Positions 2,484-30,861 of a DNA stretch of 64,000 nt are shown one piece after another (the stretch's first letter is position 1; each line of letters starts with the position of its first letter). The notes under the pieces are model-generated. The model saw only the letters and a program-made list of their open reading frames with translations. It had not been told where the DNA came from and made no database searches. The DNA comes from Candidatus Heimdallarchaeota archaeon (GTDB lineage Archaea > Asgardarchaeota > Heimdallarchaeia > Heimdallarchaeales > Heimdallarchaeaceae). The stretch is from contig JAUVXV010000010.1 in the NCBI GenBank assembly GCA_030603365.1, forward strand, positions 64,001-128,000, read 5' to 3'. Both the position numbers and the translations under genes were made by a program.

Positions 2484-2554
2484 ATTCAGTGGTGCCGTTA
2501 TTTTCATCGCATGAAACATGCTCCAACGGTAAAACCTACATCACTATCTACGCA
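2477..2554 (-). ncRNA. Box C/D guide sRNA candidate with a 9-bp terminal stem
   Basis: Minus strand reads TGCGTAGAT-A-GTGATGT(C)-12 nt-TGGA(D')-GCATG/CATGC hairpin-GCGATGA(C')-14 nt-CTGA(D)-ATCTACGCA. Confidence 0.7.
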
Positions 2555-2630
2555 AACTTCAGTTATTTTCTAATAAAATAAAGGTATCTTTTACGATAAC
2601 TTTAATTTATGCTTAATTAAAATATCTGTA

Positions 2631-4421: not shown

Positions 4422-4484
4422 ATTGTCACTCTTTTTCCTTCTACTTTTTTAATCAAATTGCGGATGAAACTATTAGAAAGTATA

Positions 4485-4514
4485 TATTAATCCAAGGAGC
4501 TATTAATCCAAGGA
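4485..4514. repeat. 14-bp direct repeat TATTAATCCAAGGA x2 (16-bp period), possible operator
   Basis: Exact copies at 4485-4498 and 4501-4514, next to a TATA-like AAAGTATATA upstream of the TPR gene. Confidence 0.55.
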
Positions 4515-4545
4515 AAAGTCGAATAGTGGCTAGGGGTTCTAAGGT

Positions 4546-5346
4546 ATGAGAGACCAAGAAAACAATGCTAACCAATTCTTCATGAGAGGACAACAAGGCT
4601 TCAAGGCTGGTAACTACCAGACTTGCATCAAGGACCTCATCTATGCTCAAGAGATTTTTTCTTCAATTGGTATGAAAGAGCAGTCTGCTCACGCTTTATT
4701 TTTAACAGCTCAAGCTTATCAAAACATTTGTCAATACACCCAAGCTAGACAATTTTACGTTCTTGCGTTTAACAGATACAAAGAACTAAACAATCTTCAC
4801 AAAATAGGTGAATGTACATTGGTTCTAGGAATCATCTATCGTGAAGAAGGAGATTTTAAGAAAAGTAAACAAAGCCTTGCAGAAGCTATAGAGGTATTTA
4901 CTACCTTGAATGATTTTGAGAAACTTGCCGACTCATGGAGAATACTAGCTCTAACATACCAAATAGATTTGAATCAGTATTCTGAACATCCTATGCATTC
5001 AATAAGTGCATATCGAAAAGCCATTCTTCTTTACAAGAAAATCAAACAACTGGAGAAGAAAGCAGAGACCGAACACGATTTGGGTCACATTCTAATTTCA
5101 CAATCTAAATATCATGATGCTCTTGAAGTGTTTCAAGATGCATTGAATTACTATAAAAAGCAAAATGATAAAGAACAGATCATACCTATTTCTATTCTAA
5201 TTGGTCGCATTTATTTTGAGTTGGGAAAGAAGCCAAAAGCAAAAGATTACATGCATAAAGCTATTAATGAAATGAAAAAATACGATTACTCTCCAGAGAA
5301 AATAAATCTACTAAAGCAATCAATAATAGCTATGTTTAGCAGTTAG
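4546..5346 (+). CDS. Tetratricopeptide repeat protein
   Basis: About 40-aa helical repeats (LG..Y...G....A.....A) throughout. Confidence 0.85.
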   Translation: MRDQENNANQFFMRGQQGFKAGNYQTCIKDLIYAQEIFSSIGMKEQSAHALFLTAQAYQNICQYTQARQFYVLAFNRYKELNNLHKIGECTLVLGIIYREEGDFKKSKQSLAEAIEVFTTLNDFEKLADSWRILALTYQIDLNQYSEHPMHSISAYRKAILLYKKIKQLEKKAETEHDLGHILISQSKYHDALEVFQDALNYYKKQNDKEQIIPISILIGRIYFELGKKPKAKDYMHKAINEMKKYDYSPEKINLLKQSIIAMFSS

Positions 5347-8505: not shown

Positions 8506-8557
8506 GATATAATCAAGGATAGGTGAAATGAAAAATATTTAACACTATTGTTTCTTA

Positions 8558-9550
8558 TTAAAAAATCTCGTCAGTATCGATTGTTGAGATTTCAAACATT
8601 GGTAATTGTTTTTCAGACCAAAAGGTTTGATTGTCAATCATATATTTGATAAGATAACTGGTTAAATCTGATTCAGATATACCATTATCTTTCTGAACTC
8701 GCAAACCTTGAATTTCTTTAATAAATTCAGTCAGAAGTTTCATTAAAAGACTGGTTCCTTTAAATTCTTCACTTCTGGTGGTAATTAACCAGCAAGAAGT
8801 TTGTTCATCGGCGGCCATAACAACTTGTCTACCTCCGATCCTCATGTATTCCAGTATTGATTCTGCATTTGTAGCAAATTTATAACGAATTACTGGGAAT
8901 GAACTTTCATCAACTATGTTATCATCAGCAGTTTTAATTCTAGCTTCAACAATTCCTGTTTCTGTTTTAATATAAGCTACAAAATAATCAACAGTGATAC
9001 CAGCTGTGATCAGAGTAGAAATTATAGCATTAGCTAACCAGTCAACAGTTTTGTTCAAATTCTTTCCTGTAATTGGAGAAATAGACATGTATTCAATATC
9101 ATGACCACCGGAAGGACTTGTAAAGATATTATTGATTGTTTTAACAACCTCTTCATCTATTGGTTTGTCCCAAGTATTAATCAAAACAAGAACAGGGGAA
9201 TTCTGTTTAATCCATTTGAGAGCTCGAACAAACCATTGTTTAGATTCATCTAATTTTTCTTCCTTGGTTCCGTCTACTACATAGATTAGTGCGTCTGAAC
9301 GAGAGAGGTAACTTGGCCAAAGAGAATTACGAAAAGGTTCTTTTCCACCCAAGTCAGTTAAACCAAGTCTCAAGCCATTGATTTTGACAATTTCTTGATT
9401 TATGCCATATGTAGAATAAGTTTCAGATATCTCTTCACGCAGGAGCTTATTGACAATGGAAGTCTTTCCAACTCCATCTAAACCTGCAATCGATACTGTC
9501 ATGTCTCTACTTGACACTGCTAAATCAGTACTTGTTTCTGACCCCAACAA
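8558..9550 (-). CDS. Arf/Sar-like small GTPase with a C-terminal longin-like domain
   Basis: G1 GLDGVGKTS, G3 DLGG, atypical G4 NTWD; about 150-aa alpha/beta C-terminal extension. Confidence 0.85.
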   Translation of the reverse strand: MLGSETSTDLAVSSRDMTVSIAGLDGVGKTSIVNKLLREEISETYSTYGINQEIVKINGLRLGLTDLGGKEPFRNSLWPSYLSRSDALIYVVDGTKEEKLDESKQWFVRALKWIKQNSPVLVLINTWDKPIDEEVVKTINNIFTSPSGGHDIEYMSISPITGKNLNKTVDWLANAIISTLITAGITVDYFVAYIKTETGIVEARIKTADDNIVDESSFPVIRYKFATNAESILEYMRIGGRQVVMAADEQTSCWLITTRSEEFKGTSLLMKLLTEFIKEIQGLRVQKDNGISESDLTSYLIKYMIDNQTFWSEKQLPMFEISTIDTDEIF

Positions 9551-11085: not shown

Positions 11086-11247
11086 ATGAATAATGGTGGT
11101 ATTGGAGGATTAGGTGGATTGGAGGAAAGCGAGGATGAACTCACTTCGGAGGAAATTGAAAGAATAAAGGAAGAAAGAAGATTAAAGGAAGAGGAAAAGA
11201 AAAACAAAAAGAAGGAAAAAAAGAGGAAAAAGGAATACGGATATTAA
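11086..11247 (+). CDS. Small charged protein (53 aa), absent from the ORF track
   Basis: ATG at 11086 after an AGGAG; MNNGGIGGLGGLEESEDELTSEEIERIKEERRLKEEEKKNKKKEKKRKKEYGY*. Confidence 0.55.
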   Translation: MNNGGIGGLGGLEESEDELTSEEIERIKEERRLKEEEKKNKKKEKKRKKEYGY

Positions 11248-11302
11248 GCTATATCATCCCTATCTGTTTTTAAAAGATTCACATTTCAGTTTTTCACAAA
11301 AG

Positions 11303-11318
11303 CGTAAAGGTTATATAT
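11303..11318 (+). promoter_or_regulatory. BRE/TATA promoter of the thermosome gene
   Basis: CGTAAAGG-TTATATAT about 65 bp upstream of the ATG. Confidence 0.5.
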
Positions 11319-11380
11319 CAGTGATTAGACACATGAACTTGAAAATTTGATAATCTTACGATTACAAAGAGGTATTTACA

Positions 11381-13006
11381 ATGTATGGTCAACCAGTTTA
11401 TATTATGAAAGAAGGAACTGAAAGAACCCAAGGAAGAGATGCCCAACGCAATAACATCACTGCTGCAAGAGCTGTTTCAGAAGCTATTCGTTCTGCACTT
11501 GGTCCTAAGGGAATGGACAAGATGTTAATTGACAACTTTGGTGATACTACTGTCACCAATGATGGTGCAACTATCCTTAAAGAGATTGAAGTCAGCCATC
11601 CTGCAGCCAAATTCGTGATCGATCTTGCTAAGACTCAAGATCAAGAAACCGGTGATGGCACTACCACTGTTGTGGTTATTGCTGGTGAGTTGCTTAAACA
11701 AGCAGAAGAATTATTGGACTTGGATATTCATCCTAGTATCATTATTGAAGGATATAGATTAGCTCGCTTTAAAGCTGATGAAATCCTTGATGGAATGTCT
11801 ACTGAAGTTCTATTTGATAACGATAAGACTTTGAGAGCTGTAGCTGAAACTTCTATGTCTTCTAAAATCGTTAGTGGTGAAAAAGGTTTACTAGCTGAGA
11901 TTGTTGTTAAGGCTGTTAAAGCCATATCTGAAGACAAAGATGGTAAAAAGTTTGCTGATATTGATAACATTCAAATTCAGAAGAAGAAAGGTGGGAGCCT
12001 TGTTGATGCTGAATTAATTGATGGTATCATTATGGATAAAGAATTCGTTCACTCAGATATGCCTAAGAAGATTGAGGATGCTAAAATTCTTCTACTTGAT
12101 AAGGGATTAGAATTAAGCAAAACCGAAATTGATGCGAAAATCAATATTACCAGTCCTGAACAGATTCAAGCTTTTCTTGATAATGAACATGAAATGCTCA
12201 AAGAAATGGCTGATAAAATCATTGCTTCTGGAGCTAATGTGGTTCTTTGCCAGAAAGGAATTGACGATATTATTCAACACTATTTGGCTAAGAAAGATAT
12301 TTCAGCTGTTCGTAGAATTAAGAAAAGCGACATGGAAAAACTAGCTAAAGCTACAGGTGCACAAATAACTACCAGTTTAGAAGATCTCAAGGATTACATT
12401 GGTAATGCAAATCTTGCTGAAGAGAGATCTATCGGTGATGATAACATGATTTTTGTAACTGGATGCGAAAATCCTAAAGCTGTTTCTATAATCATCCGTG
12501 GTGGAACTGAAATGATAGTTGATGAAGCTGATCGTGCTATTCATGATGCTCTCTGTGTTGTTCGTCAAGTTATTAACGACAAGCAAGTTGTTCCAGGTGG
12601 TGGAGCTCCCGAAATTCGAATTAGCCAAAAACTTGGAGAATTTGCAATGGATTACACCAGTAAAGTACAACTAGCAATCGAGAAGTTCGCAAAAGCTATG
12701 GAAATCATTCCTAGAACTTTAGCAGAAAACGCAGGACTTGATCCAATCGATGTTCTATCAGAATTACATGGACAACATGCAAAAAACGGTCATGTTTTTG
12801 GAGTTAATCCATTTAAATCAAAAGTAGATGATATGGCAAAACTCAATGTTTGGGAACCAATTTCAGTAAAGAAACAAGCTATTAGCGGTGCTGCTGAAGC
12901 TGCTGAAATGATTCTCAGAATTGATGATGTTATTGCTGCTAAGGAATTATCTGGTGGGGCGGGTGGAATGCCTCCAGATCCTGGCGGAATGGATGAGGAT
13001 TTCTAA
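11381..13006 (+). CDS. ths: Thermosome (group II chaperonin) subunit
   Basis: LGPKGMDKM, TNDGATIL and GDGTTT motifs; GGM-type tail. Confidence 0.98.
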   Translation: MYGQPVYIMKEGTERTQGRDAQRNNITAARAVSEAIRSALGPKGMDKMLIDNFGDTTVTNDGATILKEIEVSHPAAKFVIDLAKTQDQETGDGTTTVVVIAGELLKQAEELLDLDIHPSIIIEGYRLARFKADEILDGMSTEVLFDNDKTLRAVAETSMSSKIVSGEKGLLAEIVVKAVKAISEDKDGKKFADIDNIQIQKKKGGSLVDAELIDGIIMDKEFVHSDMPKKIEDAKILLLDKGLELSKTEIDAKINITSPEQIQAFLDNEHEMLKEMADKIIASGANVVLCQKGIDDIIQHYLAKKDISAVRRIKKSDMEKLAKATGAQITTSLEDLKDYIGNANLAEERSIGDDNMIFVTGCENPKAVSIIIRGGTEMIVDEADRAIHDALCVVRQVINDKQVVPGGGAPEIRISQKLGEFAMDYTSKVQLAIEKFAKAMEIIPRTLAENAGLDPIDVLSELHGQHAKNGHVFGVNPFKSKVDDMAKLNVWEPISVKKQAISGAAEAAEMILRIDDVIAAKELSGGAGGMPPDPGGMDEDF

Positions 13007-17884: not shown

Positions 17885-18946
17885 ATGATGGAATACAATC
17901 AACCAGTAAGTTTTTCTGTAACAAAAAGAAACATAGCAGTATTAGATTTTGGGGTTACATCTCTCAAAATAGTCATTTTAGACCCAGTCCACCCAGAAGA
18001 GCCTTTACATTTCCAACGTATTTATCTTCCCTTGAGAACTAAAAAAGAGGAAGTTGAAAGTGTCCTCAAAACTCTTCTACGTTCTTATTCTGATTATCAT
18101 ATTCGCAAATTCATAATTACTACTACAAGTCCTCTATTTGCTTCTGCTCAGGAAACAGTTGAATATATTATTATGTCAGTGACTAAATTTATCCATCCAA
18201 CAAACATCACATTATACACTCATGATGAGAAGTTTGTTTCAATAAATGAAGCATTAGTCGATCCAACCAAGGTTGTTTCGGTAGGCTGGAAGGCGCTAGG
18301 AAAAGGATTATGGCATATGGTGAAAAAAGACGGATTAGTAGTTGATTTCTCTACCAGAACCACTAGCTTTATTCCTGTGAAAGATGGAAAAATTCTCTCT
18401 GAATCTCAGTCTGACTTCGAAAGGATGAAAAGAGATGAGTTGATTTTCTTTGGTTTCTTGGAAACAAATGTGGCATTCATACAACCAAGATTCGAGTTTA
18501 ATGGAGAAACATACAATCTTCCATTTGAACCTCATGTAATAATGGCAGATATATTTCTTATCACAGGCGATTTGAAATCTAATGATTATGTAACTGATAC
18601 TCCTGATAAAAAAGCAAAGTTTAGAGAAGATGCCTTAGATAGGTTGAAAAGAATGTTGTGCATAATAGACGATCATTTCAGTGAGAATGATTTAGTCAAA
18701 GTTGCACACATATTAAAAGTTCGAATGTTAGAGAAGATTAATCAGATAATTAATAAGAAATTACAAGAACATAATCTTTCAAGGATTTTGATAACAGGTA
18801 TTGGGTCAAATCTCCTCTATCAGTATCTCTATGAGAAAAATGAATCAAGAGATATCATTAAAGTATCCGATATATTAAAAACTGCAGAGATTAATCCTTC
18901 TTACAGTTTAGCTTTCATATACGCAACAAAAAAAGATGATGAATAA
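17885..18946 (+). CDS. MfnF-like / hydantoinase-oxoprolinase (ASKHA fold) protein with degenerate motifs
   Basis: LDFGVTSLK, VDFSTRTTSFIP, SDFERMKRDELIFFGFLETN and TDTPD align with MfnF-family motifs. Confidence 0.7.
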   Translation: MMEYNQPVSFSVTKRNIAVLDFGVTSLKIVILDPVHPEEPLHFQRIYLPLRTKKEEVESVLKTLLRSYSDYHIRKFIITTTSPLFASAQETVEYIIMSVTKFIHPTNITLYTHDEKFVSINEALVDPTKVVSVGWKALGKGLWHMVKKDGLVVDFSTRTTSFIPVKDGKILSESQSDFERMKRDELIFFGFLETNVAFIQPRFEFNGETYNLPFEPHVIMADIFLITGDLKSNDYVTDTPDKKAKFREDALDRLKRMLCIIDDHFSENDLVKVAHILKVRMLEKINQIINKKLQEHNLSRILITGIGSNLLYQYLYEKNESRDIIKVSDILKTAEINPSYSLAFIYATKKDDE

Positions 18947-20184
18947 TGGCTGAGAGAGCTGATTTGAGGAATAGAATCAATGTGATGTTATTTCACTTTG
19001 ATCAAAGATTAGGTCCAAGGTTACTGTTCAATGTTGCTGAGATTCAAGATACAAGAATAACAGCATCATTAACTCGACTAATGGATTTTAATTTCCTTGA
19101 AGAAATGAAAGCTATAGTTAATGCCATGGCCAATGTTGTATATTCAAGCATGTTCTTCTCCATTCCAAATCCTACAGCAAGAGGTGGAGTAGAGCAATTC
19201 ATGCTTTCTTTTATAATTTTTGATCCTACAATAACCGAATATCTAACAATCTCTTCTTTAGAAGAAGAAATGTCAAAGATAATAAGCAATCTAATTCTTC
19301 TCTCTGAAATGTTCATCATTATAACCTACAGTAATCCAGTGCTTGAGGATTTTCCCGAGGTAGAAAATACACTAAAATCATTGAGAGATAATGCAATTAA
19401 TGTTTTCCAAGACATCTTTTATGGGCAATTTGAGGGAACCAAGGATGCTATATCACAAATATTAGGTAAAATTGGTTTCGAAGCAGGTAAACAAATTGTA
19501 CAAGAACTGCGGATAGATGATGAAGGTTCAGTGAAATCTTATACTGAGGCCCTAGTTAATTCACCAATTCTTACAAGATGGGGAAATATTAACATTCTTC
19601 ATTTTGACCCGGGAGAAAAAGTAGCTACAATATCTTTAGATAGATCTATTTGGACAGAATCTCTTGGAGTAATTGCAACAAAAACCTGTGCATTCATTGA
19701 AGGAATGTTAGAAGCTATTTTCAGTAAAATTTTAGATGAACCAATCATCTGTGATGAGATGAGATGTGCCTCTGAGTATAGTTACGTTAAAGATTGTATA
19801 TTTCAGATAGCTCCAGGAGGAGGAAGTAGGGAGATAATAGCTTATAGAGAAGATCAAACTATCAAAGAGATGGGAGTGCAAGAAAGAGAAAAAACTATGG
19901 AGTTAATCACTTCGGCTATTGGAGAACAATTCTACTATGAACTAGATCCCATGATAAGATTAATCCAATTGTTTAACAAAGCACCATTCATTTCTGACCA
20001 TTTTATCCAAGAGTCAGAGGAAGAAGTAAAATTTCTAGTAGTTTGTAATTACTGGAGATATCCTAATGAAATAATGTGTAACAGCTGTGAAAAGTGGATA
20101 AGAAATTCAAGCAAATTTCCTGTTAAACTAGTTAAGAGTAAACATCGTATTTGTGAAATAACATATGAAACAGAGAGTCAATAG
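18946..20184 (+). CDS. Longin/uDENN-like domain fused to V4R domain(s)
   Basis: FHFDQRLGP and PNPTARGGVEQFMLSFI at the N-terminus; V4R C..IEGMLE...EMRC...C.F; Cys-rich V4R-like tail. Confidence 0.8.
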   Translation: MAERADLRNRINVMLFHFDQRLGPRLLFNVAEIQDTRITASLTRLMDFNFLEEMKAIVNAMANVVYSSMFFSIPNPTARGGVEQFMLSFIIFDPTITEYLTISSLEEEMSKIISNLILLSEMFIIITYSNPVLEDFPEVENTLKSLRDNAINVFQDIFYGQFEGTKDAISQILGKIGFEAGKQIVQELRIDDEGSVKSYTEALVNSPILTRWGNINILHFDPGEKVATISLDRSIWTESLGVIATKTCAFIEGMLEAIFSKILDEPIICDEMRCASEYSYVKDCIFQIAPGGGSREIIAYREDQTIKEMGVQEREKTMELITSAIGEQFYYELDPMIRLIQLFNKAPFISDHFIQESEEEVKFLVVCNYWRYPNEIMCNSCEKWIRNSSKFPVKLVKSKHRICEITYETESQ

Positions 20185-20191
20185 AGACTCT

Positions 20192-20458
20192 TCAAGTATC
20201 AAAGAAATTCTTTAGTTTGGTTTGAACTATTTTAGTTTCAACCTTTTTCCAAATTGTTTTACCTGATATGTATTGACTAACCCACCGGCTCTTAAGTCTA
20301 AGATTTTTACCTACGGCAATTTTAGGAATCCAAACTGGTTCGATTGTTAATCCATCAATTACTCCATAATAGGATTTGATAGAATCTACAAAGAGAAAAT
20401 CTATCTTATATTCAGACAATGCTTCTTCTCTAGATTTAGTAATAACTTGTCCCATCAT
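20192..20458 (-). CDS. Small hypothetical protein with a C-terminal PIP box
   Basis: Ends QTKLKNFFDT; ATGA overlap with the upstream TPR gene. Confidence 0.7.
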   Translation of the reverse strand: MMGQVITKSREEALSEYKIDFLFVDSIKSYYGVIDGLTIEPVWIPKIAVGKNLRLKSRWVSQYISGKTIWKKVETKIVQTKLKNFFDT

Positions 20459-20976
20459 AGTTTCTCCAACAATCTTGTAGCATAGTCAACAATGAGAAGT
20501 TCATCACAAGTGTATGATTGAATGAAATTTTCCGCTCTCTTCAACCAAAGTTTGAGGATTTCTTTATCTGGATAATCCATTGTAACTAAGGTAAAGAGAA
20601 CTTTGGAAGGGAGACGAGGAGCAAGGTCAGGATTGGAATTTGTTTCCCAAGCGAGAGAATAGTAGCCTATAGCTATTTCCAATTCATCCCGTATTGTATG
20701 AAGGTTCCCTAAATAGAAATAAGTTAAATTAGAGGAAAGATCGGATAAAGAAAGTTCTTGGAAGAATCGTATTGCAGAATCAACTTCTCCTTGTTGAATT
20801 AAACTAAGACCTAGAGTTAAAAGCAGGTTATATTCAAAATCAAATAGAGCATCGATTGCAGTTTGTTCTTTTTCTTCTGATTCTAAACTTAGCATGATTA
20901 CTTTCATTAAAGAGTCTAGAAAAATAGTATAAAAACCTAACAAAAAATCTCTCAAGATAAACAGAAGAAAACTCAT
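20455..20976 (-). CDS. Short TPR protein (true start probably downstream, MLSLESEE)
   Basis: LGLSLIQQGEVDSAIRFF and LGNLHTIRDELEIAIGYY repeats. Confidence 0.75.
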   Translation of the reverse strand: MSFLLFILRDFLLGFYTIFLDSLMKVIMLSLESEEKEQTAIDALFDFEYNLLLTLGLSLIQQGEVDSAIRFFQELSLSDLSSNLTYFYLGNLHTIRDELEIAIGYYSLAWETNSNPDLAPRLPSKVLFTLVTMDYPDKEILKLWLKRAENFIQSYTCDELLIVDYATRLLEKL

Positions 20977-21002
20977 CTAATTTCTGTTTATTACTCGTAG
21001 AA

Positions 21003-22100
21003 TTAGAATTTTTTCAAAAACTTCTGTAACTCTTCTTTAGTAAACTCAAAAACTACTTCTGAATTCCATTTCTTGTATCCTAAAATCTCATTTATTTTAT
21101 GCATATGGATGTTAGCTGAAGAACTACCTGTTGACCATGTTCTTACTTGTGTGGTTTTTAACATTCTCTCCAGCATTTGGTACTTTAAAGCTAATCCGAG
21201 ACCATTTCCTCTATGTTCATGTAGAACACCTGTTTCCCACTGCCATGCAACCTGTGGTTGATAATCACTGATTACTGAAACAGTAATGCCAACTGGGTTT
21301 TTTGTTTTTCTTTCAATAGCGACGAAAGACAGAAAAGTTTCCCATCTCTGAAGATTATTATCACATTGCTCATCATAACGCTCTGTAGTTAGTTTTGTAT
21401 TTTCTTCTGAAAGCTTCTCTCTTGGCATGTCATTCCAAACACATTCTATTAAATTGACGAACTTTGGATAGTCTTCTATATTTTCTTTGTAATTCAGATT
21501 ATCAACAATTATTAGATCATAACCTTTCTGAAGTACTTTCTCTTTTTGTTTTTGAGCTTCTAAAGAAATCTCATCTAAATTATGCTCATCAAGATTCGCA
21601 ATGTAAAAAAACTCTTCATAAGCTCGTTCATCCTTAATTTTATCATAAAAGTGCTCTTCTTTTGATTCACTCAAGTACCAAGCATACATTGTTTTGATCT
21701 GCTCTGGAATACTATTCACTATCTCTCTAAACATAATCATTCTGTTATTCTCTTTTTCCTTATTGTCCTGTAAGTGAATAAAATGCCAAGCTTGTTCTAA
21801 ATTGTCATATTTTGTATTCCAGCCTAACCAAGCATAACTCATAACTTCATCATTCTCATTTACTCCTACAAATTGGAGGCTTTTTACCCAAGATAACTCA
21901 GGAACCTTCCAGTTTTTTCTATAGAAATTTAAGTGAGGAGGATCAGCAGGAAGGTATTCTCTTTGAGATTTCTGCATTAATTCGAATATACTCTCAAGAT
22001 ATTTTTCGGGAATGTCTTCCTTCATCCCTGAGATGATGTTCTGAATTCTCATTTTGTCACACTCCAAAGAAATCGTTAAAAATCTGTTGAATTGAAACAA
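21003..22100 (-). CDS. Tandem GNAT-fold acetyltransferase
   Basis: TGVLHEHRGNGLGLALK; N.HMHKINEILGY. Confidence 0.88.
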   Translation of the reverse strand: MFQFNRFLTISLECDKMRIQNIISGMKEDIPEKYLESIFELMQKSQREYLPADPPHLNFYRKNWKVPELSWVKSLQFVGVNENDEVMSYAWLGWNTKYDNLEQAWHFIHLQDNKEKENNRMIMFREIVNSIPEQIKTMYAWYLSESKEEHFYDKIKDERAYEEFFYIANLDEHNLDEISLEAQKQKEKVLQKGYDLIIVDNLNYKENIEDYPKFVNLIECVWNDMPREKLSEENTKLTTERYDEQCDNNLQRWETFLSFVAIERKTKNPVGITVSVISDYQPQVAWQWETGVLHEHRGNGLGLALKYQMLERMLKTTQVRTWSTGSSSANIHMHKINEILGYKKWNSEVVFEFTKEELQKFLKKF

Positions 22101-22141: not shown

Positions 22142-23686
22142 ATGAGAAATCATCTTTCTATCATTTGCTTTATCCTTGTAATTTTAGCTCCATTTACTGG
22201 AACTGGATCAACTTTACAGCAAGCTAGTCCTACAATTGTCGATTATATCTATTGTAATAGTAATATTATAACAATTGATGATTCCAGCTCATTGTTTGAA
22301 GCTATTGCAATTAAAGATGGCATTATAGTTGCCTTAGGTAGTAACGAAGAAATTCTATCAAATTATGAAGCAGAAAATAATCAATGCTATAATCTGGAAG
22401 GACGAACCATTATGCCTGGAATAATCGATGGTCATACACACTATATGGCATCATTATTTTGGATTGGAGAAACAGAAACAATCTATGAATCTCAAATTTT
22501 AGCTTTAGCTAATGGCTATACAACCTTAAATGAAAAAAGTATAGACATGGGTGAATTTCAATGGTTACAGGAAGCAGAACAAAGTAATACGCTTCGTCTT
22601 CGAGTAAACGCTTTTCTTATTTACAATTATGCTTGGCTTGAAAATAATGAATCTGTATTAGTTGAACACTGGAATCCAGATTTAGAACCTCTACTAAATC
22701 ATGACCGCAAGTTTCGTGTTCCTGGATTCAAAATCTATTTAGATGGAGCTTACGGACACCGAGGTTTTCCAGCAATGAGTGACCCTTATACACAGGAAAT
22801 GATAGATTTATGGGGGATTATCAATCCTTATGGAGATCTTTATTTTAATCAATCAGAATTAAATTCAGTAGTAGATTCTTTTCATGATAGAGGTTTTAGT
22901 GTAGCTGTTCACGCAATGGGTGATAGAGCAACTGAAACAATCCTAAATTCTATAGAATATGCTTTGAATGGGACAGATAATGATAATGCACGACATCAGA
23001 TTGAGCATAACAGCTTCATTAGAGAAGATCAAATCGCTAAAGCTTTATCACTTAATACTATTCATTCTGTTAGAGGCTACTTCCCAACTTATTGGCAGCA
23101 AGAATATGCTGATCTTTACAGTTCCATATGGATGGAAAGGACAGTAAACAGATACTCTCTGCCTGGAGAAGGACTTCATTCTTATCTAGAAACTGATTTT
23201 GGTTTTCTTCATGGTTATGATGAAGATAATTGGAGTAAATCAGCTAATATCAGACCTTTCCTACACTTATGGGGTTTGGTTACTAGAAAAGCAATTGATA
23301 TTAATGGTACAATCCATGAACCTGATCCTTGGGTTGCAGAACATGAAATTACAGTTGAACAAGCACTAAGAATGATGACCATAGAAGGAGCGTATGCAGT
23401 AAAACAAGAGGACTATATTGGTTCTTTGGAAGTTGGTAAATATGCAGATATAATAATTTTAACAGCTGATCCTCTAACAATTGATCCTGATGAGCTAAAA
23501 GATATTGAAGTTATGCTTACAATGGTAGAAGGAAAAATAGAATTCCAAATGGCAAGTCACTCATTCCCAATAACATGTGAGCTTTCAACACCAGGGACAG
23601 ATACAACACCATGGACCATTCTCTTATCAATAACTGGAATATGTGTCATTGTTCTAATAACCACAAAAAAGATAAGAATAAAATAA
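22142..23686 (+). CDS. Secreted, membrane-anchored amidohydrolase-3 (YtcJ-like)
   Basis: Signal peptide; PGIIDGHTH, HAMGD, IEH and GSLEVGKYAD motifs; C-terminal TM + basic tail. Confidence 0.9.
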   Translation: MRNHLSIICFILVILAPFTGTGSTLQQASPTIVDYIYCNSNIITIDDSSSLFEAIAIKDGIIVALGSNEEILSNYEAENNQCYNLEGRTIMPGIIDGHTHYMASLFWIGETETIYESQILALANGYTTLNEKSIDMGEFQWLQEAEQSNTLRLRVNAFLIYNYAWLENNESVLVEHWNPDLEPLLNHDRKFRVPGFKIYLDGAYGHRGFPAMSDPYTQEMIDLWGIINPYGDLYFNQSELNSVVDSFHDRGFSVAVHAMGDRATETILNSIEYALNGTDNDNARHQIEHNSFIREDQIAKALSLNTIHSVRGYFPTYWQQEYADLYSSIWMERTVNRYSLPGEGLHSYLETDFGFLHGYDEDNWSKSANIRPFLHLWGLVTRKAIDINGTIHEPDPWVAEHEITVEQALRMMTIEGAYAVKQEDYIGSLEVGKYADIIILTADPLTIDPDELKDIEVMLTMVEGKIEFQMASHSFPITCELSTPGTDTTPWTILLSITGICVIVLITTKKIRIK

Positions 23687-23703
23687 AATGAAATGAAATA
23701 GGA

Positions 23704-23760
23704 TTAATTTAATCCTATAATGTCCCCATCTTCACTGTAGTCCATTCTATTAGCAGTTGG
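23704..23760 (-). pseudogene. 57-bp remnant of the fhs 3' end (copy 3)
   Basis: Translates PTANRMDYSEDGDIIGLN* versus PAANRMDYTEDGNIIGLN* in the intact fhs. Confidence 0.9.
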
Positions 23761-23902
23761 ATTGAAGGGAATTAAGGGATTAAAACAAACTACAGTATAC
23801 AGGAAAAAAGTACGAGCTCCAATGGTAGTCTCTTTCTTCTTTAGAATCTATAGGAGATTTATGAAAGACAACTATAAATAATACAAATGATATAATTTAG
23901 GT

Positions 23903-24274
23903 ATGTCTGAAGAGGAGATTAAAGAACTGGAAGAGTTCCTTTTACCATATGTTAATGACAGACTTGACAAGTGGTACATAGCTACTAAAATTGGAGAGTG
24001 TTTTATGTGGGTTGCTAGAGCCTTGATTAGATGTCTTCTAAATGTTACCGAGAAGATTCATTTGCATGAAATAACGTCGATTTCACTTTCTGAAGTTTAT
24101 TTTATAGAAAAAATTAATATATTTCAGAATAAGGATGGTGCTATTTCCAGCTTTATGGAAATGGACCCACATAAAATTTCAGGAGAAATACACCAATGGA
24201 TTATTCATCTTCAGGAAAATGGAAAACTCTCCGGAATATACGAAAGGCATACTGGATTTTATCGAAATAAATAG
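23903..24274 (+). CDS. Hypothetical protein, possible C-terminal winged-helix/PCI-like end
   Basis: IIHLQENGKLSGIYERHTGFY resembles a wH wing. Confidence 0.6.
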   Translation: MSEEEIKELEEFLLPYVNDRLDKWYIATKIGECFMWVARALIRCLLNVTEKIHLHEITSISLSEVYFIEKINIFQNKDGAISSFMEMDPHKISGEIHQWIIHLQENGKLSGIYERHTGFYRNK

Positions 24275-24468
24275 TTATGATAACTTTTGGGACATATATC
24301 AACTAAACCGCATCATGTTCATGAAAGAGGGAAAAAAGATGCAGTAGAAAGCGAGATGACAGGAAACTCTGATAACGACATACCTCTACTAATTGAAGTT
24401 TTGAAGATATTTCTAGTGTAAAAATGAGCATATTCTGTATGAAGAATTATGACATAGTAAAAGTTTGT

Positions 24469-24520
24469 TAAAAAAAAAGGGGTTTGCTCCAACTTCTGTT
24501 GGATTAGAACAGAGTGGAGT
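24469..24520 (-). terminator. Stem-loop plus T-tract downstream of the 24543-25100 gene
   Basis: Imperfect stem CTCCAACTTCTGTT/AACAGAGTGGAG followed on the minus strand by CCCC and a T run. Confidence 0.5.
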
Positions 24521-24542
24521 GTGTTTCAAAGGTTATTTATGC

Positions 24543-25100
24543 TTAATAAGGCATAAAATAATTGTTCATAAAGGCTAAGTCTACTCCAGGAGTTACATAG
24601 TGTGCCATTCCTGGCATTGGTCCACCGTCGAAGTTGAAGGCTGTTCTGGCTGTATGTTTGAGCCAAATAACTTTATCAGGATGTTCAGCTCCACCATCAA
24701 CTGCTCTCATTTCATGTCTATGAACATATCCCATACTGGCATATGCTTCAGCCTTTTCTGGACTCCATGTATCGATAATACCATGTACTATGAAAAGGAG
24801 TTCACCATCAGCTGCGTCAGAAGACCACCATTGTGCCATTCCAAAAGGACCAGTGTTATAGTGTTTTCCAACGAACTGATTAGGTCCAGCTTGTACCCAG
24901 TAATGACCAGGAACATCGAATTCTCCATTAGGACCATCAGGCGCACCTGCCATGTAATAATCTATTCCATCAACATTGAAAACGATCCCATGTACAAAAC
25001 CTTTAGCGTTTGCTGAGGTTGTTTCTGCAGATGCTAGTGCTGTTAAAGCAAAAATCGAAAGCATAAACAAACTCAGACCGATTGTTTTTGATTTATTCAT
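24543..25100 (-). CDS. Secreted His/Met/Gly-rich hypothetical protein, possible metal binder
   Basis: Signal peptide; PGHYW, KHYNTGP, YVHRHE and LKHTA segments; higher GC than its flanks. Confidence 0.8.
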   Translation of the reverse strand: MNKSKTIGLSLFMLSIFALTALASAETTSANAKGFVHGIVFNVDGIDYYMAGAPDGPNGEFDVPGHYWVQAGPNQFVGKHYNTGPFGMAQWWSSDAADGELLFIVHGIIDTWSPEKAEAYASMGYVHRHEMRAVDGGAEHPDKVIWLKHTARTAFNFDGGPMPGMAHYVTPGVDLAFMNNYFMPY

Positions 25101-25119
25101 AATTCATCAAACCGTTAAG

Positions 25120-25158
25120 TGTTACCAATATAATGGTAACATTACTTATAATTAAGTA
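25120..25158. promoter_or_regulatory. Two adjacent perfect palindromes, candidate operators
   Basis: TGTTACCA-N6-TGGTAACA (25120-25141) and TACTTA-N4-TAAGTA (25143-25158), just upstream of the 25100 ATG. Confidence 0.55.
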
Positions 25159-25274
25159 TCCAACTATAAATATATGTGGTTTAAACAAAAATAAACATAT
25201 GATCAAAAAAACCAACTGCAAAAAAGATTATTGTAAGTTTAAATGTGTCAGTATAGATTGAAAATTCACTATAG

Positions 25275-25538
25275 TTGATTTATTTAACGCTAGGGGAACC
25301 AAAATATACGATGGGGGGGAAATATTTGCTGTTAGTACAATTCAAATTAATACGACATTTATTTTACCATTTGATTTCGATGGTGTATATGAAAAAAATC
25401 GGAAGTGATTATGTTGGTTATTATCATTATACGCTTAAAGTAACTGGAACAACTGAACCTACAGATTTTGGTTTCACAATAATAGGAGTAGTGATAGTCG
25501 TTATCTGGATTACTAAACATAGAAAAAAGAAAATATAA
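25275..25538 (+). pseudogene. 3' remnant of a C-terminally anchored surface-protein gene
   Basis: Only the tail looks protein-like (Thr-rich linker, TM, KHRKKKI*); TTG start, no signal peptide. Confidence 0.5.
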
Positions 25539-25561
25539 GAATGAATAAAAGTAGGGCTAGT

Positions 25562-25873
25562 TTAGTTTAACCCTATAATGTTTCTATCTTCAGTATAGTC
25601 CATTCTGTTAGCTGCTGGAACTGGAGGTAGTCCAGGCAGTAAGAACATGCTACCACAAATGGGAACGATAAAACGAGCACCAGTGTATAATCTGACCTCG
25701 TCAACATTAAGGGTCCAACCCTTGGGTGCACCCATGAGACCAATCTTGTCTGAAAGGTTGAGTTGAGTCTTAGCCATACAGAGAGGGAAGTCAGCAAAAC
25801 CAAGCTTTTCGATGTAAGCAATATCTTGGAGAGCTTGAGGTGAGCATTCTACGCCTTCAACACCATAGATTTT
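25562..25873 (-). pseudogene. 312-bp duplicate of the fhs 3' end (copy 2)
   Basis: Colinear with 27985-28296; KIYGVEGVECSPQALQDIAY...IIGLN* is nearly identical in protein with many third-position changes. Confidence 0.95.
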
Positions 25874-25897
25874 TATTCGAAAAGGAGAAAGAAGCTT

Positions 25898-27976
25898 ATG
25901 AGAGGAACAACTAGAGCAATAATCATGTTATTGATAGGGACCTCTTTGTTCAGTCCTTTGCTGATCGAATCAGATAATCAAAAAGATTTGAATTCATCTC
26001 CTTCTTCTCCTTTTCTTTTTTCTTATTCTAGTGCAATAAATATCGATAATGATTCTGCTTTTATTACATATGGATTTCCAGGAAATGGAACTTTTAGTAA
26101 TCCATTTAGAATTGAAAATCTGGAAATAATCTCAAACGAAACTTACTCGATTCGAATTCAAAATACTAATAGTTTCTTTATCATCACCAACTGTAAACTC
26201 AATTCAACATATAATGGTATTAATTTGAAAAATCTTGCAAACAACACAGCAATTGTAGAAAACAATGTTTTTTCAAATTTTGATCAAGGAATTGGATTAT
26301 ATATAGAAAACTCTTCTTTTACCAAAATTATAGATAATCATTTCTCATACTCAAAGACAGCAATTATGACAAGACTAGATACAGATAATTGTACTATAAT
26401 CAATAACTCCTTTGAGTATATATCAAGTGAATGCTTCTCGATACAAGAATCGGATAATTGTGTAATCATTAGTAATGAATGTTTAATTTCTAGTACCTTT
26501 CTGTACGCCTATTTTTGTGATTATTTGACAGTTGTTAATAATTTCTGTGATGATACGCGACAATTCACTCATGTAAGTCACTCTCAAAATTGTAATATTT
26601 CTAGTAATACATGTTCAAATATTACTGAAAATGGGATATATATTGGAGATACTGATTCATGCGATGTTTTATTCAATGAAATTAATGGAGGTTCAGCTGG
26701 TCTCAGAATTGTATCTTCATCAAATGTAAATATTTGTTGTAATACAATTGAATACTGTAATATTGGATTGGGTTTACGAAAATCCAGAGAATGCTATATT
26801 AAAAAGAATAATTTTACTAAATGCGGCATTTCTATCGATGAAGTAGAAGAACCAGATATTGATACATGGATGTTAGAAGACAATCTAGTTAATGGTAAGT
26901 TACTCGGTTTTTATCGGCACAAAGGAACTAATTTCTTAATTGAAGAAGAATATGGACAACTAATCCTAGTGGATTGTTTCCAAGTGACAGTTAGAAATAT
27001 AAAAATTGAAAACACTAGTATGGGGATAGGTTTATTTTATTGTGATTATTCAATTGTTGAAAACTGCACAATAAGTAATACAGTACAGAATTTTGTCCTC
27101 TATGAATCCTATTCATGTAATATTACAACTAGTTACAGTTTTGCCTCTACTTACGGTCTAGTAGTCTCTCGTTCAGAAAATTGTTATGTTCTAGAAACAG
27201 AAATTTACAACAATGATTATGGGATCCAAATTAGTCTATCAGAATATTGTTACATTAATAAGAATAATATCTTAGCAAATAATCACTATGGAATTGAACT
27301 CCATTTCTCTGATTACTGTGAGATAACAGAAAATACAATCAAAGAGAACATAAAAGGCATTTACCTAAACTTTGTGAGTACAATATTAATTGGAAGTAAT
27401 TACATATCACAAAATTATCCAAATCCCGTTTACAATAATAATTCCGCAGGAATTTATTCAACTGCAGCACTTTGGGTCTCAATTAAACACAATTCTTTTA
27501 CAGATAATGAAAAAGGAATATTGTTGTTGTTTAGTCATTATTTTATGATTTCAGATAATTGTTTTAGGAATAATAACTATGGTATTGTAGGGAAAGAAAT
27601 TTTGGAAAGTGAAATCAAATACAATTGGTTTGAAGAAAACAGCTTTTACGCCATTACTTTAAGTTCTATCTCTACAGGAAACATAATACATCATAATGCA
27701 TTCATAAATAATAATAATGGTAATGTTCAAGTTTTGGATGATGGATTTAATAACACTTGGTATAAAGTGGAAACAGAAGAAGGAAACTATTGGAGTGATT
27801 ATCAAAAAACAGGAAATTATAGTATAGATGGAATGGCAAATTCGTATGATCTCTATCCATTAATGGTAAATCCTTTAAGAAAGAGTTACTCGAGTTATTA
27901 TGCGTTTTTTTCAATGATAATTTTGATTCCAGTAAGTGTTATAGCTTTGAAAAAATATAGAAAAAGAAAAGAGTAA
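25898..27976 (+). CDS. Secreted right-handed beta-helix (NosD/CASH-like) surface protein
   Basis: Signal peptide; GFPGNGT; many PbH1-type repeats; GNYWSDY; C-terminal TM + KKYRKRKE. Confidence 0.88.
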   Translation: MRGTTRAIIMLLIGTSLFSPLLIESDNQKDLNSSPSSPFLFSYSSAINIDNDSAFITYGFPGNGTFSNPFRIENLEIISNETYSIRIQNTNSFFIITNCKLNSTYNGINLKNLANNTAIVENNVFSNFDQGIGLYIENSSFTKIIDNHFSYSKTAIMTRLDTDNCTIINNSFEYISSECFSIQESDNCVIISNECLISSTFLYAYFCDYLTVVNNFCDDTRQFTHVSHSQNCNISSNTCSNITENGIYIGDTDSCDVLFNEINGGSAGLRIVSSSNVNICCNTIEYCNIGLGLRKSRECYIKKNNFTKCGISIDEVEEPDIDTWMLEDNLVNGKLLGFYRHKGTNFLIEEEYGQLILVDCFQVTVRNIKIENTSMGIGLFYCDYSIVENCTISNTVQNFVLYESYSCNITTSYSFASTYGLVVSRSENCYVLETEIYNNDYGIQISLSEYCYINKNNILANNHYGIELHFSDYCEITENTIKENIKGIYLNFVSTILIGSNYISQNYPNPVYNNNSAGIYSTAALWVSIKHNSFTDNEKGILLLFSHYFMISDNCFRNNNYGIVGKEILESEIKYNWFEENSFYAITLSSISTGNIIHHNAFINNNNGNVQVLDDGFNNTWYKVETEEGNYWSDYQKTGNYSIDGMANSYDLYPLMVNPLRKSYSSYYAFFSMIILIPVSVIALKKYRKRKE

Positions 27977-27984
27977 AAGTAGGG

Positions 27985-29676
27985 TTAGTTTAACCCTATT
28001 ATATTCCCATCTTCAGTGTAGTCCATTCTGTTTGCTGCTGGAACTGGAGGGAGTCCAGGCAGTAAGAACATGCTACCACAAATGGGAACGATAAAACGAG
28101 CACCAGTGTATAGACGAACTTCATCTACATTGAGAGTCCAACCTTTTGGAGCACCCATCAAACCAATCTTGTCAGATAGACTTAGTTGGGTTTTAGCCAT
28201 ACACATTGGAAAATCAGCGAAACCAAGTTTTTCGATGTAAGCTATATCTTGGAGAGCTTGTGGTGAGTATTCAACATCATCAGCACCGTAGATTTTGGTG
28301 GCGATTTTCTCGATTTTAACTTTAATAGGATCAGAAAATTCGTAAGCAAATTTAACGTCACCAGTTCCTTTTTCGATAGCTTCTAAAACAGCTTCGGCAA
28401 GTTCTATACCACCTTCGCCACCTTTCATGAAAACTTCACTTTCAGCAGCAGTAACACCGAATTCAGAGCACTTGTCTTTAATCCATTTAATCTCTTCATC
28501 AGAATCAAAGGGGAAGCGGTTAATAGCAACAACAGGGGGTATATTAAAGACATTAAGCATGTTATCAAGATGTTTTTCAACATTCTCGAAACCTTTAGCT
28601 AATTCATCCATATGAATATTTTTAGCTTCATCTAAATCTTTGATACCACCGTGGAGTTTGAGGGCACGAGCAGTAACAACAAGAACTACTGCGTTTGGTA
28701 AGGTATCATATTGACGAGCAACAATATCGACAAATTTTTCGAAACCAAGGTCAGCTGCAAAACCACCTTCAGTGATGGTATAATCTGCAAGCTTGAGGGC
28801 AAGCTTTGTAGCAACGATAGAAGAGTTTCCGTGCGCCACGTTAGCAAATGGGCCTGCGTGTATGAACCCTGGTACTCCTTCAAAGTTTTGTACTAGGTTT
28901 GGTTTTATTGCATCTTTCAGTATTAGTGTCATTGCTCCTACTGCTTCAATATCCCTAGCGAAGACTGGCTTATCATCATAAGTGTATCCTAATAGAATAC
29001 TTCCTAATCTTTCTTTCAGTTCTCCCACATCAGCTGATAGAGCTAAAATAGCCATAATTTCTGAAGCTGCTGTAATAACAAAGCCTGTGTTTCGGACATC
29101 ACCACCCATTCTTCTTCCACCAAGTCCAGTAATGATATTTCTTAATGCTCTATCATTCATATCTATTGCTCTTGGCCAAGTTACTTTGGTTGGATCAATG
29201 TTACACTTATTTCCTTTTGTTAAGTGATTGTCAAGCAAAGCTGCTAGTAAATTATGAGCTGAAGTAATAGCATGTAAATCTCCTGTAAAGTGCAGATTTA
29301 TGTCCCACATTGGAAAAACTTGCGAAAGATGACCTCCTGTTGCTCCTCCTTTTATTCCGAAAGTTGGACCCATACTTGGTTCTCTTAAGGCAAACATAAC
29401 TTTCTTGCCTAATCTGTTAAACGCTTGAGAAAGACCTATTGTTGTAACAGTTTTACCTTCACCTGCTCTTGAAGCAGTCATAGCTGTTACAGCGATGAGT
29501 TTTCCATTAGGTTTATCGGATTTTAATATCTTTAGCATTGTTTGATAATTTATTTTTGCTACATATTTTCCGAATTGCTCGAGGTCATCTTCTTCCAGAC
29601 CTACTTTTGCAGCAATTTCCCTAATATTTTTCATATCTTTTTGCTTTTCTTGAGCAATTTCTATGTCAGTTTTCAT
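27985..29676 (-). CDS. fhs: Formate--tetrahydrofolate ligase
   Basis: MKTDIEIAQ start at 29676; GEGKT, REPSMGP, KGGATGG, INLHFTGD, GPFANVAHG and CMAKTQ motifs. Confidence 0.97.
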   Translation of the reverse strand: MKTDIEIAQEKQKDMKNIREIAAKVGLEEDDLEQFGKYVAKINYQTMLKILKSDKPNGKLIAVTAMTASRAGEGKTVTTIGLSQAFNRLGKKVMFALREPSMGPTFGIKGGATGGHLSQVFPMWDINLHFTGDLHAITSAHNLLAALLDNHLTKGNKCNIDPTKVTWPRAIDMNDRALRNIITGLGGRRMGGDVRNTGFVITAASEIMAILALSADVGELKERLGSILLGYTYDDKPVFARDIEAVGAMTLILKDAIKPNLVQNFEGVPGFIHAGPFANVAHGNSSIVATKLALKLADYTITEGGFAADLGFEKFVDIVARQYDTLPNAVVLVVTARALKLHGGIKDLDEAKNIHMDELAKGFENVEKHLDNMLNVFNIPPVVAINRFPFDSDEEIKWIKDKCSEFGVTAAESEVFMKGGEGGIELAEAVLEAIEKGTGDVKFAYEFSDPIKVKIEKIATKIYGADDVEYSPQALQDIAYIEKLGFADFPMCMAKTQLSLSDKIGLMGAPKGWTLNVDEVRLYTGARFIVPICGSMFLLPGLPPVPAANRMDYTEDGNIIGLN

Positions 29677-29877
29677 AGTAATCATCATCATATCGAGTGT
29701 TAATTGTTTTTTTTCCGAGTTTTGCTTAAAAAGTATTTGCATAGTTATAGAAAACCAAGGTGCCGACGGATTCACTGATGGAGATGCACAGAGTGTCAAT
29801 TCATTGTTTGTCAAATAGATATGTTCTAAAATACCCGTGTTCATTGAGCCATAGAACATTATTAGTGATTATTTCAA

Positions 29878-30861
29878 ATGCAATGTGAACATCCCCAGTG
29901 CAATACTGAAGCAGATATTTTATTCTACTGTCGATTCTGTAGAGGGTCCTTTTGTCAGAATCATAGAGATGCTCATACTCATAACTGCCCCTCGCTCAGT
30001 CAACCAAGTCAGTCAACACAAGGGGCCCAACCAGGTGCACCTCAGGGTCAAGTTAGAGCAGCGGAAGTTATGCGAAAAATAGCTTATGGTGTTGCTCAAG
30101 CTGCTCAACAAGCTGCTCAACAACAAGCTCAGGCTCAGCAACCTATGCACTTTCCCGATGAGAAGAGTAAGAAGGACTTTATTGCAAAAAGACTTACTTC
30201 TTCAGGTGAGCTATTTTCTTTAGGAAATGAGGTATTAGACATACTTTTTGGTTTTACATTAATAGTTCTTGTTTTTGGTTTTTTCCAATATATCAGAGCT
30301 ACAGAGAATAGATGGTGGGGTTTTGCTATTGCTGCAATATTAGTAGGTACCGCTTTCTTACCTCACGAATTAGCTCATAAATTTGTAGCCATCAGAAAAG
30401 GACAGTTTGCTCGATATATTCTATGGGTTAAAGGAATGTTGTTTACAATGCTCACGTTAGTTTTAGGAATTGGACTAATTGTCCCAGGTTTTGTAGCAAT
30501 AGTTCCTATGAGTCGTCAAATGAACAAAAAAGACATAGGCTTGGTTTCATTTGCGGGACCAGCAATAAATGCAGTAATAGGATTTGTTAGTCTAATTATC
30601 GGTTTCTTAACTTATAGTGGCTATGCTGTTGGATTCGCAGGTCCTCTAGCTCTTTATGGTCTTTTTGGTGTTCCTAACATTTTCATCCTTGTTGCGCAGT
30701 TTAATGGTATTATTGCTTTATTCAACTGTATACCTGTTTGGCAATTAGATGGTAAGAAAATCCTTAGTTGGAATAAAATGGCTTATTTTATACTTGTAGC
30801 AATCAATCTTGCAATTGTTATTCCTACATTTATCCTAAATCCAGGTTTCCTATCAGGGTAA
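29878..30861 (+). CDS. AN1-type zinc finger fused to an M50 (site-2) intramembrane metalloprotease
   Basis: C-x4-C...C-x2-C-x4-C-x2-H-x5-H-x-C; Q/A-rich linker; HELAH, AGP and NCIPVWQLDG motifs. Confidence 0.88.
   Translation: MQCEHPQCNTEADILFYCRFCRGSFCQNHRDAHTHNCPSLSQPSQSTQGAQPGAPQGQVRAAEVMRKIAYGVAQAAQQAAQQQAQAQQPMHFPDEKSKKDFIAKRLTSSGELFSLGNEVLDILFGFTLIVLVFGFFQYIRATENRWWGFAIAAILVGTAFLPHELAHKFVAIRKGQFARYILWVKGMLFTMLTLVLGIGLIVPGFVAIVPMSRQMNKKDIGLVSFAGPAINAVIGFVSLIIGFLTYSGYAVGFAGPLALYGLFGVPNIFILVAQFNGIIALFNCIPVWQLDGKKILSWNKMAYFILVAINLAIVIPTFILNPGFLSG

Follow-up and report, generated by a model that had tools for sequence, protein, structure and literature searches.

How does a gene come to be followed by two further copies of its own 3' end, each separated from the next by other genes? 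This question is raised by fhs, the gene encoding formate-tetrahydrofolate ligase, in a 64,000-nt stretch of DNA (the window) which covers positions 64,001 to 128,000 of contig JAUVXV010000010.1 (assembly GCA_030603365.1). The source, labeled G000, is a metagenome-assembled genome (MAG) of Candidatus Heimdallarchaeota comprising 3.65 Mb in 17 contigs; the closest public contigs likewise belong to Candidatus Heimdallarchaeota MAGs, AB_125 among them. G000 was compared with 24 other genomes of its genus, giving a set of 25, and every genome compared is a MAG. G-labels denote genomes, L-labels denote loci or contigs, coordinates are positions in the window, and fhs nt are positions in the 1689-nt fhs gene counted from 29673. 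We propose, with a probability of roughly 55%, that the interval between fhs and a gene encoding a longin/V4R protein is an additive gene-capture island which homologous recombination has built, anchored in the 3' part of fhs.

A first-pass annotation, made from the sequence alone, had listed three fhs 3' ends in the same orientation: that of the intact gene, ending at 27985, and displaced copies at 25562-25873 (tail 1) and 23704-23760 (tail 2). Repeat search and blastn both agreed with this list. The repeat search aligned 25562-25861 with 27985-28284 at 86% identity and returned a three-member family (23680-23761, 25538-25619, and 27961-28042); a search of the whole 3.65-Mb genome with the fhs tail matched these three copies only. 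The start of fhs was corrected: the open reading frame (ORF) of 624 codons spans 27985-29859 and the Pfam match covers residues 63-623, which places the start at about codon 63 (29673), in agreement with the 567 amino acids of the protein in relatives. Because fhs keeps a full-length FTHFS match beside an in-frame displaced tail, the target gene is intact. The inserts between the repeats measure 2.4 kb (cassette 1, flanked by the 312-bp repeat) and 1.9 kb (cassette 2, flanked by the repeat of 57-90 bp).

Tail 1 consists of 104 open codons with neither stop nor indel, and its identity to the live tail is 86% at the nucleotide and 93% at the amino acid level. The 46 nucleotide differences were resolved into 35.5 synonymous and 10.5 nonsynonymous ones, corresponding to a synonymous divergence (dS) of 0.83, a nonsynonymous divergence (dN) of 0.045, and a dN/dS ratio of 0.054. 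A promoter-less fragment is not selectable; with such a ratio, the divergence must therefore have built up inside working genes. The live tail and tail 1 diverged under purifying selection as parts of functional fhs alleles, just as the annotation had supposed from the excess of synonymous differences. Tail 2 (the 57-bp copy) is further decayed, with two gaps, one stop, and a dN/dS of 0.16.

Displaced fhs tails were also found in at least eight other species of the genus, one to three in each. They range from 50 to 867 nt and occur in G006, G007, G009, G010, G012, G013, and G020, at contig breaks in G016, and on the metagenome contigs L076-L078. In the relatives, fhs is followed not by one invariant gene but by a hypervariable interval, which extends over 0.9 to ~10 kb between fhs, which has the AN1/M50 gene on its other side, and the longin/V4R border gene, which adjoins the interval in most relatives. 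In its shortest state (G004, G022, and G017), a single gene of 251 amino acids (cl10) lies between fhs and the 412-amino-acid border gene.

Comparison of these loci showed that old tails stay attached to old neighbors. Intact fhs of G023 abuts an amidohydrolase gene 69% identical to that of the window, the same pairing as at tail 2. The inner tail of G007 is followed by the 251-amino-acid gene and the border gene, as is intact fhs in G004, G022, and G017, and the sequence after the stop codon is near-identical. In G012 and G013, tail types are reciprocal: over nt 1140-1600, the displaced tail of one matches the live tail of the other with 96-99% identity. Furthermore, the 50-nt remnant of G010 and the 550-nt tail of G013 have a common upstream flank, which identifies short remnants as eroded long tails. 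The notion that older cassettes are pushed outward was thus upheld: the outermost remnant of the window is the most decayed, its amidohydrolase pairing is live in G023, and the inner tail of G007 still stands at the basal neighbor.

Divergence between the live tail and tail 1 was found to be uneven, dS being ~2 over the first 186 nt (fhs nt 1375-1560) and 0.28 over the remaining 126 nt. The longest identical run is a block of 61 nt (codon-permutation P = 0.0025), which we propose to be the footprint of a crossover or gene conversion. Both copies were compared with fhs of G004 and G008. Over nt 1451-1564, the intact gene had 4-5 mismatches per 114 nt and tail 1 had 28-29; over the 61-nt block (segment compared at nt 1565-1625), the respective numbers were 2-4 and 1-3; and over the last 64 nt, they were 10-11 and 9-12. 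The sequence of tail 1 is thus of foreign type until about nt 1561, and the 61-nt block is then of G004/G008 type. This hybrid pattern would be the expected trace of one homologous crossover next to a conversion tract. The intact and displaced copies of G012 contain an identical block of their own, 68 nt near nt 1096-1163 (P = 0.0014). The blocks of the window pair and the G012 pair lie at different positions and give no sign of a common core as a site-specific enzyme would need, although one 5' boundary, nt 823-826, recurs in at least seven genomes.

The intact gene is itself an interspecies mosaic. In a comparison with L034, L035, L054, and L056, its segments nt 301-806, 900-1260, and 1451-1620 were found to be about 97-100% identical to G004/G008, whereas the neighboring genes reach only 64-73% identity; interspecies recombination at fhs must therefore be frequent. 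Short foreign patches were located at about nt 807-890, 1263-1340, and 1376-1450. The mosaic structure of the copies fits the idea of the first-pass annotation that the fhs tail serves as a homology anchor, from which we infer homologous recombination.

Genes for mobility were searched for with profiles of tyrosine recombinases (PF00589), serine recombinases (PF00239), TnpB (PF07282), DDE_Tnp_1 (PF01609), and rve (PF00665). The window contained no match to any of these five families, nor did Pfam scans of the island's ORFs reveal a mobility gene, in agreement with the first-pass annotation; the nearest match on the contig is a TnpB-like gene ~60 kb away. PF00589 gave no match on any of the ~20 fhs contigs of the 25 genomes, nor did PF00239 in the 5 genomes checked, and five stack-bearing genomes had no PF00589 match anywhere, at their completeness. 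A Pfam scan of ~60 island and cargo ORFs from the window and its relatives revealed no mobility gene. Viral or plasmid carriers were considered, and no carrier of the fhs tail or back half was present among the IMG/VR viral contigs scanned. Aloposons and other mobile elements of Heimdallarchaeum (Wu et al. 2022, PMC8813620) were dismissed as unrelated, since their integration sites are tRNA genes and they contain giant genes.

Capture by homologous recombination would proceed as follows. DNA from a related lineage, either a small circle or a linear molecule from an array-bearing genome, would bring its own fhs end together with the genes behind it. A single-crossover-type (Campbell-like) exchange, possibly of the RadA type, between the incoming DNA and resident fhs would then create a live gene composed of its own front, the incoming end, and the cargo. 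Behind the cargo, a hybrid promoter-less tail with an incoming 5' part and a resident 3' part would be left, still joined to the previous downstream genes. Repetition would stack the tails with the oldest outermost; they would erode from the 5' side, and the last 50-100 nt with a hairpin would persist.

This hairpin spans the fhs stop codon and folds in ~28 of 35 fhs tails of the genus. Compensatory variants were observed (GGG/CCC, GGA/TCC, GGTT/AACC, and ATTGAA/TTCAAT), and tail 2 has retained the structure via a compensatory change. The hairpin is probably a terminator or an RNA 3'-end element which travels with every tail; we read it as terminator-like and as serving the convergent cargo gene as well, which would explain the persistence of the terminal nucleotides. 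Integron-like attC recombination at the hairpin was rejected because long variable coding repeats would be unexpected and a hairpin followed by a T-run fits a terminator better.

Table 1. Features of the fhs island in the window and other genes of G000 with displaced tails; positions with an L-label refer to that locus.
Feature	Position	Strand	Evidence or remark
Intact fhs (formate-tetrahydrofolate ligase), anchor gene	27985-29673	minus	Pfam FTHFS E=2.8e-235
Hairpin across fhs stop codon, TAGGGTTA..TAACCCTA, then T-rich run	27980-27998	minus	Folding, compensatory variants
Displaced fhs tail 1, fhs nt 1378-1689	25562-25873	minus	blastn 85.9% nucleotide identity, 312 bp, in frame
Displaced fhs tail 2, the oldest, fhs nt 1598-1689	23704-23793	minus	blastn 77%; clear homology 23704-23760, weak to 23793
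61-nt identical block, copy in intact fhs, nt 1562-1622	28052-28112	minus	Longest identical run
61-nt identical block, copy in tail 1	25629-25689	minus	Identical to 28052-28112
Cassette 1 cargo, NosD/right-handed beta-helix protein	25898-27976	plus	Pfam NosD 2.1e-47, Beta_helix 3.9e-36
Junction of tail 1 and cassette 1, 24 nt before beta-helix ATG	25874-25897	.	A/T-rich TATA-like box TTTTTATT
Cassette 2, 3' remnant of membrane-anchored protein gene, 87 codons	25275-25538	plus	Three-frame translation
Cassette 2, 185-amino-acid protein, signal peptide-like N-terminus	24543-25100	minus	ORF
Cassette 2, 123-amino-acid ORF	23903-24274	plus	ORF
Amidohydrolase with C-terminal anchor, neighbor of tail 2	22142-23686	plus	Pfam Amidohydro_3 4e-39
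Outer variable interval: GNAT-domain protein, TPR protein, 88-amino-acid ORF	20192-22100	minus	Common to only some relatives
Distal border, 412-amino-acid longin/V4R protein	18946-20184	plus	75-90% amino acid identity in 11 loci; V4R domain
Proximal neighbor, AN1 zinc finger/M50 protease fusion, divergent from fhs	29878-30861	plus	Conserved in relatives
Unknown 386-amino-acid gene, contig C16	L068:8685-9845; tails 6260-6726, 4432-4725		86%, 84% identity; dN/dS 0.09, 0.22
M28 peptidase gene	L069:12721-13917; two stacked tails 11229-11613, 8984-9174		
Fumarase alpha and beta subunit genes	L070:4506-5393, 8480-9076; tails 3525-3738, 5392-5526		
Aminotransferase gene	L071:2572-3807; tail 7375-7470		dN/dS 0.05
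Metallophosphoesterase gene	L072:5377-7179; tail 2524-2594		dN/dS 0.12

Each fhs copy had been described as facing the 3' end of a different convergent gene whose product ends in a transmembrane segment and a basic tail. The termini of all three (beta-helix protein, 87-codon remnant, and amidohydrolase) were checked, and all end in a hydrophobic stretch followed by a basic tail. The beta-helix protein, encoded convergently with fhs, has a signal-like N-terminal segment in addition to its C-terminal membrane anchor and basic tail, and related genes occupy the same position in G010, G013, G020, and L076; the fhs homology on its upstream side ends at 25873. The 87-codon remnant facing tail 1 continues upstream in another frame across the A-run gaaaaaaatcgg, which marks it as the frameshifted 3' piece of an anchored-protein gene that was formerly longer; a tail resembling that of the remnant was found in G020:C69. 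A Pfam scan of the remnant and the two other ORFs of cassette 2 gave no match.

The name surface-protein cassettes, chosen in the first-pass annotation, proved too narrow for the genus. Cargo in these intervals includes beta-helix proteins, CarboxypepD_reg-domain proteins, a metal-efflux pair of P-type ATPase and TRASH regulator, and a beta-lactamase-fold hydrolase; methyltransferases, an MFS transporter, an epimerase, ABC components, and a solute-binding protein; and a subtilase, a HAD-aldolase fusion, and a TdeIII-family restriction enzyme. The island is a general accessory-gene site at which secreted or anchored proteins are common but not the rule.

Two relatives showed peculiarities of their own. 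In G010, the border gene is reduced to a 75-nt remnant beside a TnpB-like (Cas12f1-like TNB) gene (L038:1300-2868). In G020, both copies of the CarboxypepD_reg-domain cargo gene are preceded by a near-invariant element of 75 nt (L041:4960-5040 and 8940-9020), which is closed by an 8-bp stem (GGAGCTAG..CTAGCTCC), while the cargo proteins are only 40-55% identical; the inner motif of this element, TTCACTTACCGAAT, recurs at the gene start. A motif upstream of the G020 tails that resembles a CRISPR repeat (clustered regularly interspaced short palindromic repeats) was rejected as relevant, since it is cassette-specific and lies in the promoter region of the cargo gene.

Displaced ends are not confined to fhs. 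Self-comparison of G000 yielded 12 cases of a truncated 3' tail downstream of an intact gene, some of which are possibly paralogue arrays, and four cases of a truncated 5' head upstream. At least six other anchor genes are well supported, with dN/dS values of 0.05-0.26 and no stop in the tails by codon alignment (Table 1); the tails of the aminotransferase and metallophosphoesterase genes are short and lie 3-4 kb downstream. The same signature at other genes implies that the route is not specific to fhs, and it fits general recombination better than one dedicated site. Around these genes, we additionally noted an ORF with a weak GIY-YIG domain just upstream of the 386-amino-acid gene (L068:10080-10958), cargo between the M28 peptidase tails consisting of an Amidohydro_2 enzyme and a NosD/beta-helix protein with a CBM56 domain, and an insertion of ~3 kb between the two fumarase subunit genes.

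Several points weigh against gene capture by homologous recombination. Most other pairs of intact gene and displaced tail are without a significant identity block, neither a circular nor a linear donor form was seen, and all sequences derive from metagenomic assemblies. The segments of G004/G008 type may themselves be recent imports, which makes the label 'resident' insecure. Recombinases may be hidden among the many unannotated ORFs, or enzymes may act in trans. Furthermore, displaced tails start at fhs nt 823-826 in at least seven genomes, with unrelated flanks, and none starts upstream of it; such a recurrent boundary is not predicted by plain homologous recombination.

Tails of this class begin at L039:12312, L041:5062 and 9035, L044:2386, L059:1628, L077:11709, L078:9449, and L159:2705. 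Common descent of all these junctions was rejected, the flanks being unrelated except within G020. The boundary lies between Gly274 and Pro275/Phe276, and intact genes also show identity breaks at about nt 810-825; G010 and G013, for example, are 96-100% identical before this point and ~78% after it. The tails of the window begin elsewhere (nt 1378 and ~1598), but its intact fhs has the foreign patch at about nt 807-890. At nt 820-824, all 15 intact genes examined have the sequence GGNCC; no other GGNCC is conserved in the 3' part of the gene. The TdeIII family presumably cuts GGNCC. The island of G013 contains a TdeIII-family type II restriction gene (L044:5521-6276), whose neighbors are an 823-type tail and a fragment from inside fhs (L044:4126-4275); an adjoining ORF of 382 amino acids has no Pfam match and might encode the corresponding methyltransferase. 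Restriction cleavage as the origin of the boundary is a weak lead, for GGNCC is not avoided in the G000 genome (observed/expected 1.02) and TdeIII-family restriction genes occur in only 2 of the 25 genomes. The boundaries at nt 1140, 1378, 1449, 1486, 1507, and ~1595 have no common motif. A site-specific break or joining activity at nt 823-826 is possible but unsupported.

The recurrent boundary would be accommodated if the cassettes were decayed site-specific integrative elements, or cassettes mobilized in trans, with an att (attachment) site mimicking the fhs 3' end and integrases since lost. Such elements classically leave a surrogate 3' end and a displaced pseudo-end, a conserved palindrome stands at the tail ends, and G000 encodes one tyrosine and five serine recombinases elsewhere. 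We nevertheless consider this explanation unlikely. It has to reckon with fhs contigs devoid of recombinase matches and stack-bearing genomes devoid of PF00589, with tails of such variable length, with identity blocks that shift position between genomes, with window cassettes of only 1.9-2.4 kb, and with a viral contig scan that yielded no carrier; moreover, the at least six other anchor genes of G000 would each require an enzyme of their own.

Alternatively, a double-strand break in fhs may have undergone one-ended repair by homology-facilitated illegitimate recombination, in which the upstream end copies a foreign fhs end with its cargo and the new DNA is then connected to the downstream break end by end-joining. 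The displaced tail would in this case be purely resident from the break onward, and the nt 823-826 class with its unrelated flanks would be accounted for by a site-specific nuclease that cuts at codon 274/275. The sharp identity breaks between G010 and G013, the match between the displaced G012 half and the live G013 tail, and the sole conserved 3' GGNCC along with the TdeIII-family gene in the G013 island are in line with such repair. However, tail 1 of the window is foreign in its 5' two-thirds, which the model does not predict, and the genomic frequency of GGNCC, the rarity of the TdeIII family, and the lack of a common motif at the other boundaries speak against it; we regard it as quite improbable.

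An artefact or trivial duplication, that is, a chimeric assembly of strains or a decayed in-place tandem duplication, could be suspected because the genomes are metagenome-assembled and contigs of several relatives break inside fhs, but was rejected as highly improbable: at 25873/25874, fhs nt 1378 abuts unrelated sequence, and the 184 nt next to this junction share only ~80% identity with the live gene, so that no common k-mer path for a false join exists; the region sits inside a 144-kb contig, assemblies made independently in different studies show this architecture again, and an in-place duplicate would drift to a dN/dS of ~0.5 and acquire stops instead of showing 0.05 and none.

The large genomes of Asgard archaea contain many acquired genes, yet few routes of DNA gain are known for this group. 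The fhs locus is a readable record of repeated integrase-free gene gain in which the order of events is kept and donor-type and resident-type sequences can be distinguished, and its signature returns at several housekeeping genes and in many species. If capture by homologous recombination is true, recombination between species (flanks ~68% identical, fhs segments up to 100%) is frequent in this genus and can add genes beyond allele replacement. The junction at nt 823-826 offers those looking for a new nuclease or recombinase a concrete target, and the displaced tails are natural markers for strain-level gene flow in metagenomes. A bolder and rather doubtful extension is that Heimdallarchaeum possesses a general integrase-free cassette capture with gene tails as handles at many loci, plus a site-specific break or joining activity at fhs codon 274/275 which swaps the whole back half; if true, the archaea closest to eukaryotes would gain genes by a mechanism of their own kind.

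No description of the fhs island was found in the literature searched. Among described phenomena, insertion with long target duplication comes nearest (Nobusato et al. 2000; Furuta, Abe and Kobayashi 2010, PMC2853133): inserts of a few kb, which carry bacterial restriction-modification genes and no integrase or transposase, are flanked by direct repeats of 46-423 bp, often over gene 3' ends; the repeats were proposed to permit amplification and release, and the survey recovered no archaeal case (PMC2853133). The fhs inserts likewise lie between direct repeats of the target longer than 30 bp (312 bp and 57-90 bp), with no mobility gene found. Unlike the near-identical recipient repeats of that system, the fhs repeats are 86% identical with a dS of 0.83, and the 5' part of tail 1 is foreign; in addition, the array combines diverse cargo with stacked events and belongs to an archaeal host.

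Prophage e14 and phage 21 insert in the 3' end of E. coli icd, supply a surrogate end with mostly synonymous differences, and leave a displaced pseudo-end; they have an integrase and a defined att core on an element of prophage size. A surrogate end differing mainly at synonymous sites and a displaced pseudo-end are also present at fhs, whereas the searches there revealed no integrase and no common core. Additive islands at tRNA genes and arrays of the tycheposon type contain stacked partial tRNA copies from recurrent insertion, and some of their cassettes consist of cargo only. Repeated insertion at one anchor, with displaced anchor copies as cassette borders, is common to these arrays and fhs, but the fhs anchor is a protein-coding tail of 50-867 nt and no integrase-bearing member was found in the genomes searched. 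Integrons resemble the island in being ordered arrays of small gene cassettes which each end in a palindromic element. Unlike in integrons, the gene upstream of fhs encodes the AN1/M50 protease, IntI and attI are missing, and the contig has no PF00589 match. Integron cassettes are promoter-less and point in one direction, whereas the cargo genes of the island are oriented toward fhs and the beta-helix gene has a TATA-like box in front of it; the repeats are coding sequences of 50-867 nt instead of attC sites.

In arrays of Rhs, CdiA, and type VI secretion effector genes, new ends recombine within a conserved upstream region and old ends are pushed downstream as orphans. In the proposed capture, new fhs ends would arrive and old ones be displaced downstream in the same manner. 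In those systems, however, the variable toxin end with its immunity gene is the payload, whereas the fhs end is conserved (93% amino acid identity) and serves as a handle only, the payload being the genes behind it.

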